From: a virus
Lineage: Duplodnaviria; Heunggongvirae; Uroviricota; Caudoviricetes
Direction: 5' to 3' (one strand)
Virus record (IMG/VR): IMGVR_UViG_2695420487_000018
Length of the DNA: 15,479 nt
The first letter of the stretch is position 1. Each line of letters opens with the position of its first letter. Below, piece after piece: positions 6,328 to 15,479 of the stretch. The notes under the pieces were generated by a model. The model did no database searches, was not told the DNA's origin, and saw only the letters and a program-made list of their open reading frames with translations. The position numbers and the translations under genes are program-made.

Positions 6328-6381
6328 AATTTTTTCACCTGTAAAACAGAGAAGGGGCTTTTTAGCCCCTTCGGTGTGCTG

Positions 6382-7539
6382 TTAATCGTCGTCCTGCGGC
6401 AGTTCCAGAATCTTTATAGCGTTCGAATCCACCACGCCACCGCCTAAATATTTCTGCGTGAAAATTTTGATAAAGCCCGGCTCTGTCAGGTTGTCCGGTC
6501 TGGTGCGCACGCCCGTTTCATGATCAACGATGTAATAACCGCGTTTGAAGTCACCCAGGGCGATAACGTTATCCGGCATAAATTCCAGATACTCCACCGG
6601 AAGCCCCAGCAACGTATCAGGATCACCCGCCTGTAAACGGTCGCGCCAGATGTAATCGCCGTTCGCGTTCTTCACCTTCTGAAGTTTTGCCGCCGTCGTG
6701 GAGTTAACCACCCAGACCGCGTTTTTGCGGTATTTTTTACGTAATGCAAATTTCAGGTCGATCAGCGGGTCCGCAGATGTCCACGCCAGAGATTCGGAAG
6801 GTTTAATTACCTGCAACGTACCAAAATCACGCTCTTTGTCGTTCTTCTCTGCACGGGGTACGGATAAAAAACCTTTTGCTTTTTTGTCACCGTCGCCCAC
6901 AACCAGATCGCTTTCTTCGGTTTCCGTGAAGGTGTCGCCAATCTCACCCGTCAGCCATGAAAGGATGTCCACATCGGAAAAATCCACGATTTCCTGTGTG
7001 GTGCGCGGGTACGCATAGACCGGATACAGCTTAATGCTCACCTCGTTAATCTGCGGGGTGCTGGTCTGTTCGCGTGCCTTACCCTCTTCACCGTGGTTAA
7101 CGGTCGCACCGCCAGCGGAAACAAGCTGCTTAAACTCGTTGCTGCTGATTTTCTTCACGGTACAGATGCGGCGCATGGTGGATTCATCCGCCAGCATTCG
7201 CATGATTTCGGTGTTCAGCTCGGGGATAACGGTATAACCACCATCAGCGGGAACGCCTGTACTTAATGCGCGGGTTTCACCTGTCAGGATGTAGTTGCGT
7301 AGTTCTGCGGGGTCAGTGGTCTGACTGCTTTTACCTGGCTTGCTGCGCTCTTCGTCTGCAATGGCTTCAAGGCGGGAAATGTCTTTATCGAGGGATTCAG
7401 CTTTAGCGCGTAATTCGTCAAATTTTGCGCCCTCAGCATCGTTAAGACTGCGGTTTTCTTTTTCCGCGTTCTCCAGCATGTCGCGCATCTGATTTTTAAT
7501 GGCGGTTTTCTGCTGGCGTAATTCGATTATTCTCGGCAT
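6382..7539 (-). CDS. Major capsid protein (HK97 fold) with N-terminal coiled-coil delta/scaffold domain
   Basis: 385-aa ORF; first ~100 aa are coiled-coil-like (IIELRQQKTAIKNQMRDMLENAEKENRSL...), followed by a capsid-like body. Confidence 0.85.
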   Translation of the reverse strand: MPRIIELRQQKTAIKNQMRDMLENAEKENRSLNDAEGAKFDELRAKAESLDKDISRLEAIADEERSKPGKSSQTTDPAELRNYILTGETRALSTGVPADGGYTVIPELNTEIMRMLADESTMRRICTVKKISSNEFKQLVSAGGATVNHGEEGKAREQTSTPQINEVSIKLYPVYAYPRTTQEIVDFSDVDILSWLTGEIGDTFTETEESDLVVGDGDKKAKGFLSVPRAEKNDKERDFGTLQVIKPSESLAWTSADPLIDLKFALRKKYRKNAVWVVNSTTAAKLQKVKNANGDYIWRDRLQAGDPDTLLGLPVEYLEFMPDNVIALGDFKRGYYIVDHETGVRTRPDNLTEPGFIKIFTQKYLGGGVVDSNAIKILELPQDDD

Positions 7540-7546
7540 AAAAAAA

Positions 7547-7576
7547 GTCCTGGGGTTAAGTAAGGAACTCCAGGAC
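7547..7576 (-). promoter_or_regulatory. Hairpin immediately upstream of the capsid gene start; its 3' arm contains the only SD-like AGGA and is followed by U7 then AUG
   Basis: Minus-strand RNA GUCCUGG-AGUU-CCUUACUU-AACC-CCAGGAC-UUUUUUU-AUG; 7-bp perfect stem plus 3 further pairs after one mismatch. Confidence 0.45.
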
Positions 7577-7677: not shown

Positions 7678-7754
7678 GTGGCCCCAGCGTCCTGGCACCA
7701 CGGGCGAGAATAATCATGATTCAGTTCGGGTAAAATATGCCGATCCGCTCAGTG

Positions 7755-7779
7755 AACAACGTGGAACAACCACGAACAA
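7755..7779. promoter_or_regulatory. 25-bp dyad motif AACAACGTGGAACAACCACGAACAA (core CGTGG-AACAA-CCACG) upstream of the capsid operon; a second copy lies at 14170-14194 and a half-copy at 252-266
   Basis: Exact or near-exact matches found by eye (1 mismatch between the two full copies); both lie inside runs of 10-bp-phased ACAA/TGTT. Confidence 0.55.
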
Positions 7780-7796
7780 ATAATTTACAAAACATG

Positions 7797-7820
7797 ACAA
7801 AAAGCCGGATTGCTCCGGCT
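7797..7820 (-). terminator. Rho-independent terminator ending the replication/regulatory operon
   Basis: Minus-strand RNA AGCCGGA-GCAA-UCCGGCU followed by UUUUUGU, 7 nt after the stop of the 7827..8099 gene. Confidence 0.65.
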
Positions 7821-12185: not shown

Positions 12186-12642
12186 GGCACACCCCCTGAC
12201 GAATACGGGCGACAAAAATCAGATGTGCGTGCGGCAGCTGGGCGCGGGCTTCGCGTTCAGTGGCTGCGGTAACGGTGTAAATATCAATGCTGCTGTGGTG
12301 GCACTGCATAAAGCGCCAGACAAAGTAAGGGCGTGCGGATACAGCCATGTGAAAGGCTCCCAGATGAATTTTAAGGAGTCTCGCTACTACGCTGCTAAAC
12401 ATGGTGGCGAGACGTAACAGGGTTAGCAGACTGGTCATCTGGAAACCAGCGAGCACAAAGGCTCCCCCGTTACGCCCCGCCATAATGCGGGTATGGGTAG
12501 GTTTACGGACACAAAAAAACCGCTTATCGGATGTGGGCGGCTGTCCGCCAGATGTATTCAGGCTGCTAAACCCGGTCGCCATGTGGGCGACGGGGGAAGC
12601 ATACAGCCCCGTGATAATTTTTTGCAAGCGGTTTTTACGCAT
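12178..12642 (-). CDS. Hypothetical protein; C-terminal about 55 aa paralogous to the 12635..12907 product
   Basis: Track ORF 12178..12684; ATG at 12642. C-terminal motifs FVWRF, TEREAR, ARIRQG are shared with the upstream gene, with third-position differences (GTC/GTG, CGC/CGT). Confidence 0.45.
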   Translation of the reverse strand: MRKNRLQKIITGLYASPVAHMATGFSSLNTSGGQPPTSDKRFFCVRKPTHTRIMAGRNGGAFVLAGFQMTSLLTLLRLATMFSSVVARLLKIHLGAFHMAVSARPYFVWRFMQCHHSSIDIYTVTAATEREARAQLPHAHLIFVARIRQGVCRA

Positions 12643-12907
12643 GATGTGACCCCTGACGAATACGGGCGGCAAATACAGCAACACAACCTGACGGGCAACG
12701 GCTACGCGCTTCGCGTTCCGTCCAGGCGGTTACGTGGATGATTTGAGATTCTCCGGCACTCAGTGCCAGAAAACGCCACACAAAGGCCGTTTGTGTGTGT
12801 ACAAGGTGTGGTATATGATTTACAGCAACCATAACGGCTCCTAGTTTACGTTGTTGGTTAGAAGCCCTGCGAGTGGTAACGACACTTGCGGGGCTTTGTC
12901 TTTTCAT
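12635..12907 (-). CDS. Hypothetical small protein (65-90 aa), first gene of the leftward operon; paralog of the next gene's C-terminal domain
   Basis: ATG at 12907 (AAGG upstream) or 12832 (AGGAG 5 nt upstream); same conserved motifs as the downstream paralog. Confidence 0.5.
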   Translation of the reverse strand: MKRQSPASVVTTRRASNQQRKLGAVMVAVNHIPHLVHTQTAFVWRFLALSAGESQIIHVTAWTEREARSRCPSGCVAVFAARIRQGSHHA

Positions 12908-12923
12908 CGATTACCTTGATAAA

Positions 12924-13006
12924 GGTGTCAGCCACTATATTAGTAACGGGTGTCAGCCACGTCAATAGTGTTTTTCCGTTTTCTTGTGTGTATACTGTCA
13001 GCCACC
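12924..13006. promoter_or_regulatory. Divergent promoter/operator region: leftward promoter TTGACG-N17-TAATAT (minus strand), rightward -10 TATACT, and three direct repeats TGTCAGCCAC
   Basis: Minus-strand -35 is rc of 12960-12965 and -10 is rc of 12937-12942 with a 17-nt spacer. Repeats at 12926-12935, 12951-12960 and 12996-13005 overlap promoter elements on both strands. Confidence 0.6.
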
Positions 13007-13026
13007 TAATAACGAGGAAATCAGAT

Positions 13027-13206
13027 ATGGCAACAAAAGCAGTTAATGCAAAATCCAAAAAGCTTGAGGCTCGAGTACCACACGCAATAGCTGATGCTGT
13101 AGAAAATTTAAAGGAAGATGGCGAAAGTACAGGGCAATTTATCGTTTCGGCACTTGAAGGCGAGATCAAACGCCGCCAGCGCCGCAAGGCCAAAGAATCA
13201 GAATAA
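13027..13206 (+). CDS. Small DNA-binding protein, ribbon-helix-helix-like (59 aa); candidate regulator of the switch
   Basis: GAGGA 8 nt upstream of the ATG; pattern KKLEARVPHAIADAVENLKEDGESTGQFIVSALEGEI fits a beta-strand plus two helices; basic C-terminal tail. Confidence 0.55.
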   Translation: MATKAVNAKSKKLEARVPHAIADAVENLKEDGESTGQFIVSALEGEIKRRQRRKAKESE

Positions 13207-13248
13207 TCACTATCAGCGCCGTGGTGTGAGGTATTACGGCGCATTGCT

Positions 13249-13437
13249 ATGCAGGACAACACAATGACCGATAAAGAATTGACCAAAACATTATCACCGG
13301 CACGGAAAAGACGGCGCAGAAAGATAGAGCATGAATCAGAAAGATTCGCACCATGTGCTTTTGCCCTTGAGCAATTCCTTAAAGAGTACAGGGAAAAGCG
13401 CTCATTGCAGGTATGGCAACGAACTGAACCAGACTGA
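13249..13437 (+). CDS. Possible small basic protein (62 aa)
   Basis: ORF between the RHH-like gene and the plus-strand terminator; no convincing SD. Confidence 0.25.
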   Translation: MQDNTMTDKELTKTLSPARKRRRRKIEHESERFAPCAFALEQFLKEYREKRSLQVWQRTEPD

Positions 13438-13532
13438 TTGCATTGCCCACCAGCCTGATAGCGGCTATCATCCCCGTGCTTATGTTTGGGATCACACACA
13501 CAAACGGCGCAGCGGGTTATCTGTTCAGAAAG

Positions 13533-13560
13533 GCGGCTCCATTTCGGGGCCGCTTTTTTT
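13533..13560 (+). terminator. Rho-independent terminator of the rightward unit
   Basis: GCGGCTCC-ATTTC-GGGGCCGC (8-bp stem with one G-U) followed by TTTTTTT. Confidence 0.7.
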
Positions 13561-13706
13561 ATACCTGAAAAACCCCAATTTTGTTGTTTTTCAGTTTCAC
13601 CAGGGCGAACGAATCCCCGCCCACGTTCTGGCGTATATTCAATCTTCATGGTTATAGCTCTGTGTTCAGATGATTGATGTGTGGCGGCTGCGTGCCGCCA
13701 GCGTGA

Positions 13707-13895
13707 TTAATGAACTGCCTTGCAGCTATCCTTCCAGGCCAGAACCTCGGATAAAGACCAGCCAACGGAACGACCGCCAAGTTTACGACGTGATGGGAAT
13801 TGTCCGGCCTTTTCCAGGCGGTAGCGACACGTACGGCTAAGGCCGGTTAGTTTTTCGCATTCTTTTTCACGTATAAACCGATCAGTGCTTAACAC
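13707..13895 (-). CDS. alpA: AlpA-family transcriptional regulator (excisionase-like HTH)
   Basis: 62-aa ORF ...KECEKLTGLSRTCRYRLEKAGQFPSRRKLGGRSVGWSLSEVLAWK... matches the AlpA pattern; GTG start with AGGGGGG 6 nt upstream; sits next to int. Confidence 0.8.
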   Translation of the reverse strand: MLSTDRFIREKECEKLTGLSRTCRYRLEKAGQFPSRRKLGGRSVGWSLSEVLAWKDSCKAVH

Positions 13896-14261: not shown

Positions 14262-15479
14262 TTATTTTCTTCTGGCTACTGGTAGCGTGGTTACGTTTTC
14301 ATGTGTTCCCGCCAGTATCCCTAACCGCTCCGTCCACATATCCAGCGCATTGCGTTTAGCATCCAGATAACGGGAATGATTATAAACTCGCTGCATTCCT
14401 GGCATCTGGTGGCCTGTAAGCTGCTCCACGACATGCGGATCAACGCCTAAATCGTTCAGCATCGTTGTAAAGGTGCGCCGGATGTCATGCAGTGACCAGT
14501 GAGGATGATTAAGCCTCCTGTGCGCTAATCTTCCATACTGCGATACGCTGGCCTCCTGTTTCACTTCCCCCAGCAATAAGCCCGTGTGCCTGTTCTGCTC
14601 CACCAGCTGCGTGACGAACGGCAGGATCGCTTCCGGTATGGGCCGGAATATTGCGACCTTCGTTTTGCTGTGCTCCTTCGGAACGGTCCATAGCATTTCC
14701 GTAAAATCCCACTCTCCGATCTCCGATAACCTCAGTTCTACCGTTCTGGCTCCGAAGACAATCAGGAGGCGGATTAACGCGACGTAGTAAGGGGAGAATA
14801 TTTTTTTGTCCAGTGCCTGCAATAATTCGCCAAGTTCTTTGTTACTTAAGACACGTTCGCTTATATCCGGTTTTTTCCCAACGTCCGCCACGTTCAGATC
14901 GTCCAGAACGTTGCTGATTGCATAGCGCCGCCTACGGCAGAACTTAAGCGCCTGTTTGCACGCCTGTAGCACGAATCCGGCAGTAACAGGCGTTCGCTTT
15001 GCCACCTGGTCAAAACAGGCCAGCCAGTGCCGTAGCTCGCATTTATCCAGCGGCATAGCACCAATCTGCTGTATTACGTGATTATTAAGTCGCCTTTTCA
15101 GGGCGATATAATCCACGCGGTTTTCCTTTACGTAATACTCAAGCCAGTAGGTGAGCGCATCGCCAACCGTTACCGGCTTTAACGCTTCCTGTACGGTGTA
15201 ATTAAGCTCATGACGTGGATTTTTCCCCTCTGCCAGCCATGCGCGACACTGGGCGGCTTTTTCCCTGGCTGATTTCAGGCTCAGATCAGGATAACTTCCC
15301 AGCTTAATGCGTTCGGGTCGTGTCTCCCTTCCCGTTCCGGCCCTGTATGTGAAATACCAGGTCAATTTCCCTGATGTTAAATATTTCACGCTCAGGTTTC
15401 CGCCATCACTATAAAACGTGTTTTTCTCCGCTGGCTTACCATGAAGTTTCCTTAGCAAGGTATCGCTCAGTTTGTTCAT
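14262..15479 (-). CDS. int: Tyrosine site-specific integrase (P4-like, with N-terminal arm-binding domain)
   Basis: 405-aa ORF starting at the window edge; catalytic-domain motifs HDIRRTF and RVYNHSRY; N-terminus GNLSVKYLTSGKLTWYFTYR typical of arm-binding domains. Confidence 0.9.
   Translation of the reverse strand: MNKLSDTLLRKLHGKPAEKNTFYSDGGNLSVKYLTSGKLTWYFTYRAGTGRETRPERIKLGSYPDLSLKSAREKAAQCRAWLAEGKNPRHELNYTVQEALKPVTVGDALTYWLEYYVKENRVDYIALKRRLNNHVIQQIGAMPLDKCELRHWLACFDQVAKRTPVTAGFVLQACKQALKFCRRRRYAISNVLDDLNVADVGKKPDISERVLSNKELGELLQALDKKIFSPYYVALIRLLIVFGARTVELRLSEIGEWDFTEMLWTVPKEHSKTKVAIFRPIPEAILPFVTQLVEQNRHTGLLLGEVKQEASVSQYGRLAHRRLNHPHWSLHDIRRTFTTMLNDLGVDPHVVEQLTGHQMPGMQRVYNHSRYLDAKRNALDMWTERLGILAGTHENVTTLPVARRK

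Follow-up and report, generated by a model that had tools for sequence, protein, structure and literature searches.

The question raised by this locus is what a stable hairpin does when it stands, together with a run of uridines, directly before the start codon of a satellite capsid gene. In the window, the whole 15,479-nucleotide stretch of DNA analyzed here, the minus strand reads 5'-GCG GUCCUGG AGUUCCUUACUUAACC CCAGGAC UUUUUUU AUG on the 5' side of the capsid gene. A sequence-only reading of the site had offered two mechanisms, an intrinsic terminator or attenuator that needs antitermination and a translational lock, either of which would tie capsid production to an inducing signal. Both mechanisms fit the anatomy of the site and both find partial support in what follows.

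The Satellite and Its Packaging Operon

Capsid-forming PICIs assemble heads of their own and obtain only the tails from helper phages. By its gene content, the window is a satellite of this capsid-forming PICI type (cf-PICI) from E. coli: Pfam and PHROG scans detect an integrase, AlpA, a primase, and its own capsid-to-terminase set, and no tail genes. The genes run in the order integrase, AlpA (PF05930), C4 antisense RNA, DUF927 primase, SSB, PerC, and then the packaging operon, with everything from alpA through terL on one strand. The gene set is as described for EcCIEDL933 (10.1101/2022.09.08.507074). The packaging operon consists of capsid, protease (prohead), portal, head completion, connector, HNH, TerS, and TerL. 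Its first gene (6382-7539, minus strand) encodes a 385-aa HK97-type major capsid protein assigned to Pfam Phage_capsid. The capsid AUG at 7539-7537 is the first start codon past the preceding in-frame stop, and residues M1 and E6-K11 are invariant across capsid homologues.

Over 501 nt spanning the leader, the window has 100% identity to an E. coli O157:H7 chromosome, and the capsid-leader region is matched in 836 of 5426 complete E. coli genomes, with at least 80% of it covered in 360. The window is also identical to the island L001 (NZ_CP038300.1) around the capsid leader, while the coordinates at the integrase end differ. The window integrase ORF (14262-15479) maps outside the annotated integrase of L001, and the window is therefore a related island with a different integration module. 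E. coli Sakai 2.215-2.262 Mb was considered as a site of the element and rejected, as that region is prophage Sp12.

A Hairpin and a Uridine Tract at the Capsid Start

The hairpin, termed P3 (7547-7576, minus strand), is a candidate sequestor of the ribosome-binding site (RBS) with a stem like that of an intrinsic terminator. Positions 7576-7570 pair with 7553-7547 to give 7 bp, of which five are G-C, and RNAfold extends the structure by a 1x1 internal loop, a further 3 bp, and an 8-nt loop, with an energy of -12.7 kcal/mol for the 30-mer. The earlier claim that the only Shine-Dalgarno (SD)-like AGGA of the gene lies in the 3' arm of a hairpin is borne out by both the minus-strand sequence and the predicted fold. 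The AGGA (7548-7551, minus strand) occupies positions -12 to -9, is the sole SD-like motif within 20 nt of the capsid start, and is separated from the AUG by 8 nt counted from its 3' end. The U7 tract (7540-7546, minus strand) abuts the stem on its 5' side and the AUG on its 3' side, running straight into the start codon just as had been stated.

These positions place the SD-like motif within a stable helix adjoining the start codon. Opening the segment from -15 to +4 at the capsid start is predicted to cost 10.2 kcal/mol, rank 2 among the 13 genes of the window; the portal gene has a higher RBS-opening cost, and the metric is noisy in relatives. For the 71-nt local fold around P3, the z-score is only -1.9, so that the stability of the hairpin by itself is unremarkable.

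The same element has the anatomy of a terminator, namely a G+C-rich stem followed without a gap by U7. Intrinsic terminators have compact loops, usually of 3-8 nt. The loop of P3 measures 16 nt when only the perfect stem is counted and 8 nt if the internal loop and the 3-bp inner stem form, and a strict consensus terminator scan makes no call at P3 because it limits loops to 3-8 nt. A relaxed scan (perfect stem of at least 7 bp, loop of at most 20 nt, T-run of at least six within 1 nt) over both strands of the window returns exactly one site, which is P3 with its U7. By chance, the relaxed scan finds a mean of 0.035 sites per dinucleotide shuffle, and 3.5% of shuffles contain at least one. The element is one-directional, as no T-run follows the hairpin on the plus strand; a terminator for a plus-strand gene was rejected on this ground and for want of a credible converging gene.

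A Three-Helix Leader Before the Capsid Gene

Sequence and folding indicate that P3 is the last of three helices, P1, P2, and P3, in a structured RNA leader of ∼160 nt before the capsid gene. The sequence-only reading had included neither the P1/P2 part of this leader, nor the complementarity between the apex of P1 and the 5' arm of P3, nor a terminator-like hairpin after perC. P1 (7678-7701, minus strand; GUGGUGCCAG-GACG-CUGGGGCCAC) is a hairpin of -15.6 kcal/mol at the predicted 5' end of the transcript. P2 (7630-7677, minus strand) is a long hairpin whose outer helix pairs UUUCCCGCCUG (7677-7667) with CAGGCGGGAAA (7640-7630), and it probably acts as a clamp that draws P1 and P3 together. The linker from P2 to P3 (7579-7629, minus strand) is lineage-specific, with relatives carrying a short pyrimidine-rich linker such as CCUCCCCUCCAAGCGC. 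Folded as a whole, the leader has a minimum-energy structure made up of exactly P1, P2, and P3, at -62 to -65 kcal/mol.

Genomes of Citrobacter, Erwinia, and Rosenbergiella carry the same leader, and so do IMG/VR contigs. Homologues share a layout in which a box, TTTTGTAAAT(T/A)AT, is followed by a weak promoter-like motif (CATG-N2-TATCTT or TATTCT), by P1 six nucleotides later, by P2 with its linker, and by P3. Among the 80 closest IMG/VR capsid relatives, 49 carry the P1-P2-P3 leader, 12 carry the window type, and 19 have a short or other leader.

The strongest variation lies in the sequence of P2, which forms 42 different outer helices in 82 distinct leaders, each 9-13 bp long and starting 0-3 nt past P1. 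Examples from relatives are GGCCGUUUAAUC/GGUUAAACGGCC, UGUCCACCUGG/CCAGGUGGACA, and GAUCCCCCGG/CCGGGGGAUC, and G-U pairs are seen within the helices. RNAalifold applied to a MAFFT alignment recovered P1 only, because P2 is misaligned there; P2 was then examined by folding each sequence separately. In P1 of the relatives, pairing stands at 99.7% and three pairs have changed at both of their positions, and its invariance among 120 IMG/VR loci is imposed by the search pattern. Sense folding is more stable than antisense folding in 52 of the 82 leaders, a weak asymmetry with a mean of -1.1 kcal/mol.

A covariance model built from relatives gives no match in the window under default filters. With the filters off, it gives a weak match of 16 bits in which P1 is aligned exactly at 7701 and P3 is skipped. 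The case for homology between the window leader and that of the relatives rests on synteny, the promoter box, P1, and the shared architecture. Covariation in P2 and P1, together with retention of the P3 design, provides evidence that the structure of the leader is selected.

The Region Upstream of the Leader

The perC stop codon lies at 7829-7827, leaving an intergenic region of 287 nt up to the capsid gene. Directly past this stop is a terminator-like hairpin with a U-run (7799-7820, minus strand; AGCCGGAGCAAUCCGGCU), with seven pairs and a loop of four, which would close the upstream transcription unit of replication genes and perC. Since perC has its own terminator-like hairpin (7820-7803 in the strict consensus scan), P3 is a second, separate element ∼250 nt downstream.

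Two elements stand between this hairpin and the predicted promoter. The first is a conserved box, TTTTGTAAATTAT (7780-7792, minus strand), which recurs at loci of E. coli, Citrobacter, Erwinia, and Rosenbergiella and is shared by most IMG/VR relatives, among them the ones whose leader is short. The second is a set of three TTGTTC direct repeats (7754-7779, minus strand) that start at 7779, 7769, and 7759 in an exact 10-bp phase, contain a palindrome CGTGG-N5-CCACG, and are common to relatives of the L003 and L189 types. The repeats and palindrome are a candidate regulator-binding site, and box and repeats together probably serve to bind a regulator of the capsid promoter.

The promoter itself is a putative weak sigma-70 promoter (7707-7734, minus strand) with a -35 element TTTACC (7734-7729), a 16-nt spacer, and a -10 element TATTCT (7712-7707); a strict consensus scan makes no call at this site. 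P1 starts 6 nt past the -10 hexamer, and the motif CATG-N2-TAT(C/T)(T/C)T keeps a constant distance from P1 in all leader types. One group of A+T-rich contigs (L203, L204, L206, L208, L209, L214, L215, L217, L220, L221, and L223) keeps the upstream box and has an extended -10-like TGTTAAAT upstream of position 1501, followed by an A-rich leader of ∼35 nt with no SD and no P1-P3. As some relatives that bear the box are without P1-P3, the structured leader is optional across the wider family.

The region also varies in gene content among relatives. In many O157 relatives, the terminator AGCCGGAG(C/A)AAUCCGGC with its U-run is present in two copies, one on either side of a phrog_1957 gene (74 aa, of uncharacterised function); in L002, the copies lie at about 1585-1610 and about 1940-1965. 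The window has a single copy and is missing a 354-bp segment that a deletion between the two repeats has apparently removed. In an E. coli relative of the L003 type, the leader is immediately preceded by a phrog_1957 gene, confirmed by PHROG. The upstream ORFs of Rosenbergiella and Gilliamella-like loci have a C-terminal sequence that resembles that of the phrog_1957 gene. The closest E. coli relatives with the other leader type carry a ProQ/FinO-family RNA-chaperone gene (L003 697-1239) in the place of perC; the encoded protein, absent from the window, is a possible RNA-binding partner of the structured leaders.

A Helix That Competes with P3

The element CCAGGACGC (7687-7695, minus strand), in the 5' arm and loop of P1, is a perfect complement of positions 7578-7570. 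Pairing of CCAGGACGC (7695-7687) with GCGUCCUGG (7578-7570) gives 9 bp and a duplex of -17.1 kcal/mol, and a complement of this length between P1 and P3 has a shuffle p of about 0.003. Its first seven nucleotides, CCAGGAC, are identical to the 3' arm of P3. Since GCGUCCUGG spans the whole 5' arm of P3 and CCAGGAC is the P3 3' arm sequence, the two folds are mutually exclusive. The alternative helix thus takes one arm of the terminator and excludes it, as in an attenuator, and in predicted structures the apex of P1 looks like an antiterminator or anti-sequestor. Control by CsrA through the two CAGGAC motifs was rejected as a general explanation, the motif being absent from P1 of other lineages.

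Relatives conserve this alternative helix with compensatory change. Three lineages show complementarity between the P1 apex and the 5' side of P3, through AGACGUGA:UCACGUCU (8 nt) in the common type, GACGGGA:UCCCGUC (7 nt) in the L235 type, and the 9-bp pairing of the window. At one pivot position, the common type has U-A, the L235 type G-C, and the window C-G. As an unbiased check, sequences were selected by nothing but a base other than A at the P3 pivot; each of the six true leaders so obtained had the matching change in P1, one of them (L272) as a G-U pair. The P1:P3 covariation represents only two independent lineage events. In the unrelated leader types L211 and L218/219, a 5' element likewise pairs with the region just before the AUG.

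The fold with P1, P2, and P3 has an energy of -64.9 kcal/mol, against -54.6 kcal/mol when the P1:P3 helix is forced. The alternative helix is ∼10 kcal/mol less stable, and the predicted default state is therefore the one in which P3 is formed.

Conserved Design and Lineage-Specific Sequence in P3

The P3 hairpins of relatives comprise 42 distinct sequences with a mean energy of -11 kcal/mol and a helix that ends 3-5 nt before the AUG. Their design is that of the window, with 7 bp, an interruption, and 3 bp, and an SD-like GGAA or GAGAAA lies in the 3' arm. An SD-bearing P3 is thus kept in homologous leaders despite sequence change. The stem of the window P3 is alike in design and energy and unrelated in sequence, although the short stretches CGUCCUG and CUUAACC are homologous between the window P3 and the nearest E. 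coli relatives. By these comparisons, P3 is rebuilt in the window lineage.

The U-run has a narrower distribution. A run of at least five T before the AUG is present in none of the 82 other leaders, while all 40 loci of the window type, from E. coli and Shigella, have a T-run, of seven in 32 and of eight in eight. The 0/82 among relatives implies that termination is not the conserved function and that the RBS-proximal sequestering hairpin is; the terminator anatomy looks like a lineage-specific addition. Of the two mechanisms first suggested for the site, the terminator therefore has the right anatomy, but only in the E. coli/Shigella lineage. The translational lock is the better supported of the two, since relatives with unrelated P3 sequences keep an SD-bearing hairpin.

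Within the window type, P3 is identical in 32 of the 40 loci, and four loci have a G-U wobble at the top pair. Other variants are loss of the top pair, a loop change, a stem bulge, and a mid-stem mismatch that destroys the AGGA; the stem is clearly weakened in L171 and L172, and the top pair is lost in L176. No compensatory double change in P3 is seen among these 40 loci, a sample of shallow depth.

A Proposed Default-Off Switch and Its Alternatives

Sequence comparison and folding models lead us to propose that the leader is a default-off switch that blocks translation of the capsid gene and, in the E. coli/Shigella lineage, probably its transcription as well, a proposal to which we give even chances. 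A transcript starting at P1 would fold by default into P1, P2, and P3, the OFF state, in which P3 would bury the sole SD-like sequence. In the E. coli/Shigella lineage, P3 with U7-8 would probably also terminate a large fraction of transcripts at the AUG, so that little RNA would enter the capsid gene and what did enter would be poorly translated. In the ON state, the P1 apex CCAGGACGC would capture GCGUCCUGG with the P3 5' arm while P2 keeps both segments close; terminator and sequestor would be gone, and the AGGA and its U-rich spacer would become single-stranded. A factor produced upon induction, by opening P1 or binding to it, would throw the switch. We infer the transcription start at P1, termination, translational repression, and the occurrence of switching from the sequence and from modeled structures, and a link of capsid production to an inducing signal or helper phage is plausible.

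No trans-acting factor emerged from the window. Pfam and PHROG scans of the island ORFs reveal no antiterminator-like protein (Q, N, or other), complements to P1 or P3 elsewhere in the window are at chance level only, and no leader ORF common to the lineages is apparent on reading of the sequences. A broader and more tentative proposal, which we consider somewhat less probable than its opposite, is that these leaders form a new family of cis-regulatory RNA switches in cf-satellites. In such a family, the near-invariant P1 would be the receiver of a protein or RNA factor from helper or satellite, the hypervariable P2 would be a clamp, and P3 would be an interchangeable platform, serving as sequestor in most Enterobacterales lineages and as terminator plus sequestor in E. 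coli O157/Shigella. If so, satellite capsid production would be coupled to helper infection at the leader.

The alternative that survives best keeps only translation: P3 would sequester the RBS and possibly also affect mRNA stability, and U7 would be an A/U-rich spacer or an S1-binding enhancer with no significant termination. This account fits the relatives best, with their conserved SD-bearing hairpin next to the AUG and their lack of a U-run (0/82), and it agrees with a loop that is long for a terminator and with the high RBS-opening cost of 10.2 kcal/mol. Set against these points, U7-8 directly after a 7-bp stem with five G-C pairs is canonical terminator anatomy and is present in 40/40 lineage loci, at a site expected 0.035 times per window by chance. 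We regard a purely translational role as possible and rather unlikely.

A still less likely arrangement is a fixed terminator with no RNA switch, which would yield a short leader RNA, with capsid expression depending on a processive antiterminator from helper or satellite or on upstream read-through, and with the P1 complement incidental or otherwise used. The order of promoter, ∼160-nt leader, terminator, and late genes is indeed that of lambda PR'-tR' and of Stx phages (PMC7547250), a second terminator-like hairpin lies past perC, and alpA-terL are on one strand. However, no Q-, N-, or other antiterminator-like protein is present among the scanned island ORFs, the PICI AlpA is a 62-aa PF05930 protein and not the 21Q-like antiterminator of P. 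aeruginosa (PMC9371919), and a fixed terminator leaves both the covarying P1:P3 complement and the relatives without a U-run unexplained.

The pairing itself could be read at the level of DNA, with P1 and the 5' side of P3 as inverted operators, a regulator looping the ∼110 bp between them, and a functionless RNA hairpin. P1 is an imperfect palindrome of nearly invariant sequence over the predicted start site, and inverted binding sites for a protein would show the same covariation as paired RNA. Yet P2 pairing is kept through 42 sequences, which no sequence-specific protein explains, and P3 is replaced wholesale by a hairpin of the same design and energy. The G-U pairs in P1:P3 (L272), in P3, and in P2 and the same 5'-3' pairing logic in unrelated leader types also speak against operators, and we regard this reading as very improbable.

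That the hairpin merely lies by chance beside a homopolymer and has no regulatory role is the least credible reading: the local z-score of only -1.9 and the hairpin changes in eight of 40 lineage loci (weaker stems in L171 and L172, loss of the top pair in L176) would allow it, against an expectation of 0.035 per window, a position exactly at the RBS, equivalent hairpins in relatives, and the P1 complement of nine nucleotides with its p of about 0.003.

Comparison with Known Regulatory Systems

We class the element, from its sequence and predicted folds, as a cis-regulatory leader/attenuator in which the principle is known and the specific leader is not. Control of a terminator or an SD by alternative helices is a well-known principle. 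In the default-off switch proposed here, P1 would correspond to an anti-antiterminator, the P1 apex with the P3 5' arm to an antiterminator, and P3 with the U-tract to a terminator, as in attenuators and riboswitch platforms. As in many riboswitch classes, the 3' helix appears as a terminator in one lineage and as an SD sequestor in others. Unlike attenuators and riboswitches, the leader is without a leader peptide, T-box or tRNA features, a recognisable ligand pocket, or an Rfam match, and unlike riboswitches it has a P1 that is only a 24-nt hairpin and a P2 that is hypervariable. It is like the SD-sequestering hairpins of 5' UTRs in having SD-like bases in the 3' arm of a ∼-12 kcal/mol hairpin near the AUG. 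A typical RNA thermometer differs from it, as P3 is too stable and G-C-rich, a long-range element competes with it, and one lineage has a U-tract.

Among phage systems, the closest parallel is the lambda PR'-tR' (6S RNA)/StxS arrangement, in which a leader of ∼160-260 nt precedes a late or structural operon and ends in an intrinsic terminator (PMC7547250). Default termination, induction-coupled read-through, and a short leader RNA are likewise predicted here, from sequence only. The Q protein of lambda loads at a DNA site in the promoter, whereas no Q-like gene or site is found here; a Q encoded by the helper phage is conceivable. Further differences from lambda are a terminator that lies against the AUG and contains the SD, a complementary element within the leader, and relatives without the U-run. 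For E. coli O157/Shigella, the prediction is an abundant ∼160-nt leader RNA whose 3' end is that of a terminator; in Stx phages, a by-product of this kind became the regulatory sRNA StxS. IsrK of Gifsy-1 is described as a short RNA from an antitermination-controlled phage promoter that affects translation of the read-through transcript (PMC7547250); unlike the leader, IsrK acts in trans, and no sequence relationship between the two is found.

The AlpA/tB system of P. aeruginosa offers another parallel, with an intrinsic terminator just upstream of the first gene of a lysis/phage-like operon that is bypassed on induction (PMC7969949, PMC9371919). AlpA is also reported as needed for cf-PICI induction (10.1101/2022.09.08.507074). 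The AlpA of the island was nevertheless rejected as an antiterminator: it is a 62-aa PF05930 helix-turn-helix protein (13707-13895, minus strand) with no match to P. aeruginosa AlpA in a phmmer search of the PDB. Pseudomonas AlpA has a 21Q-like eight-helix fold (PMC9371919), and only the name is common to the two. The shared name makes for an easy wrong inference when terminators turn up in PICIs.

Searches for the leader itself give no match in Rfam 15 at the gathering or a permissive threshold, the sole real match in the window being the C4 RNA, and no blastn match among 50,697 phage records. The identity of the leader with PasB, EcOnc, AgvB, AsxR, Esr41, or StxS was rejected, as blastn and Rfam give no match and the literature places those sRNAs in lambdoid prophages. 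Promoters and terminators go unmentioned in the cf-PICI preprint (10.1101/2022.09.08.507074), and no description of the leader was found in the satellite and EHEC sRNA literature examined. Nor was a description found of how the cf-PICI packaging operon is silenced or activated, and the leader offers a mutable element for its study. The leader would also be useful as an annotation marker for cf-satellites, and its interest would widen should P1 prove to be a receiver of helper-specific signals.

Other Features of the Island

The C4 antisense RNA (12400-12487, minus strand) matches Rfam RF01695 at 72.7 bits against a gathering score of 45, and the RefSeq annotation of the closely related island L001 includes an Icd-like gene. 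The C4 match points to RNA-based immunity of the P1/P7/P4 style inside a capsid-forming PICI. The C4 RNA (12487-12400) shares CUGGUUUC with P3 of relatives; it was rejected as a trans partner of the leader, with the C4 gene present in one of 10 long relative loci and no convincing complement to the window leader. An ORF of 263 aa next to alpA (12858-13649, minus strand) has no Pfam or PHROG match, and at about this position RefSeq annotates a truncated hypothetical pseudogene in L001. A terminator-like hairpin (6351-6372, minus strand) with 9 bp, six of them G-C, a loop of four, and a T-rich tail lies directly past the capsid stop and before the protease gene. It may act as a partial terminator and so set the ratio of capsid to protease.
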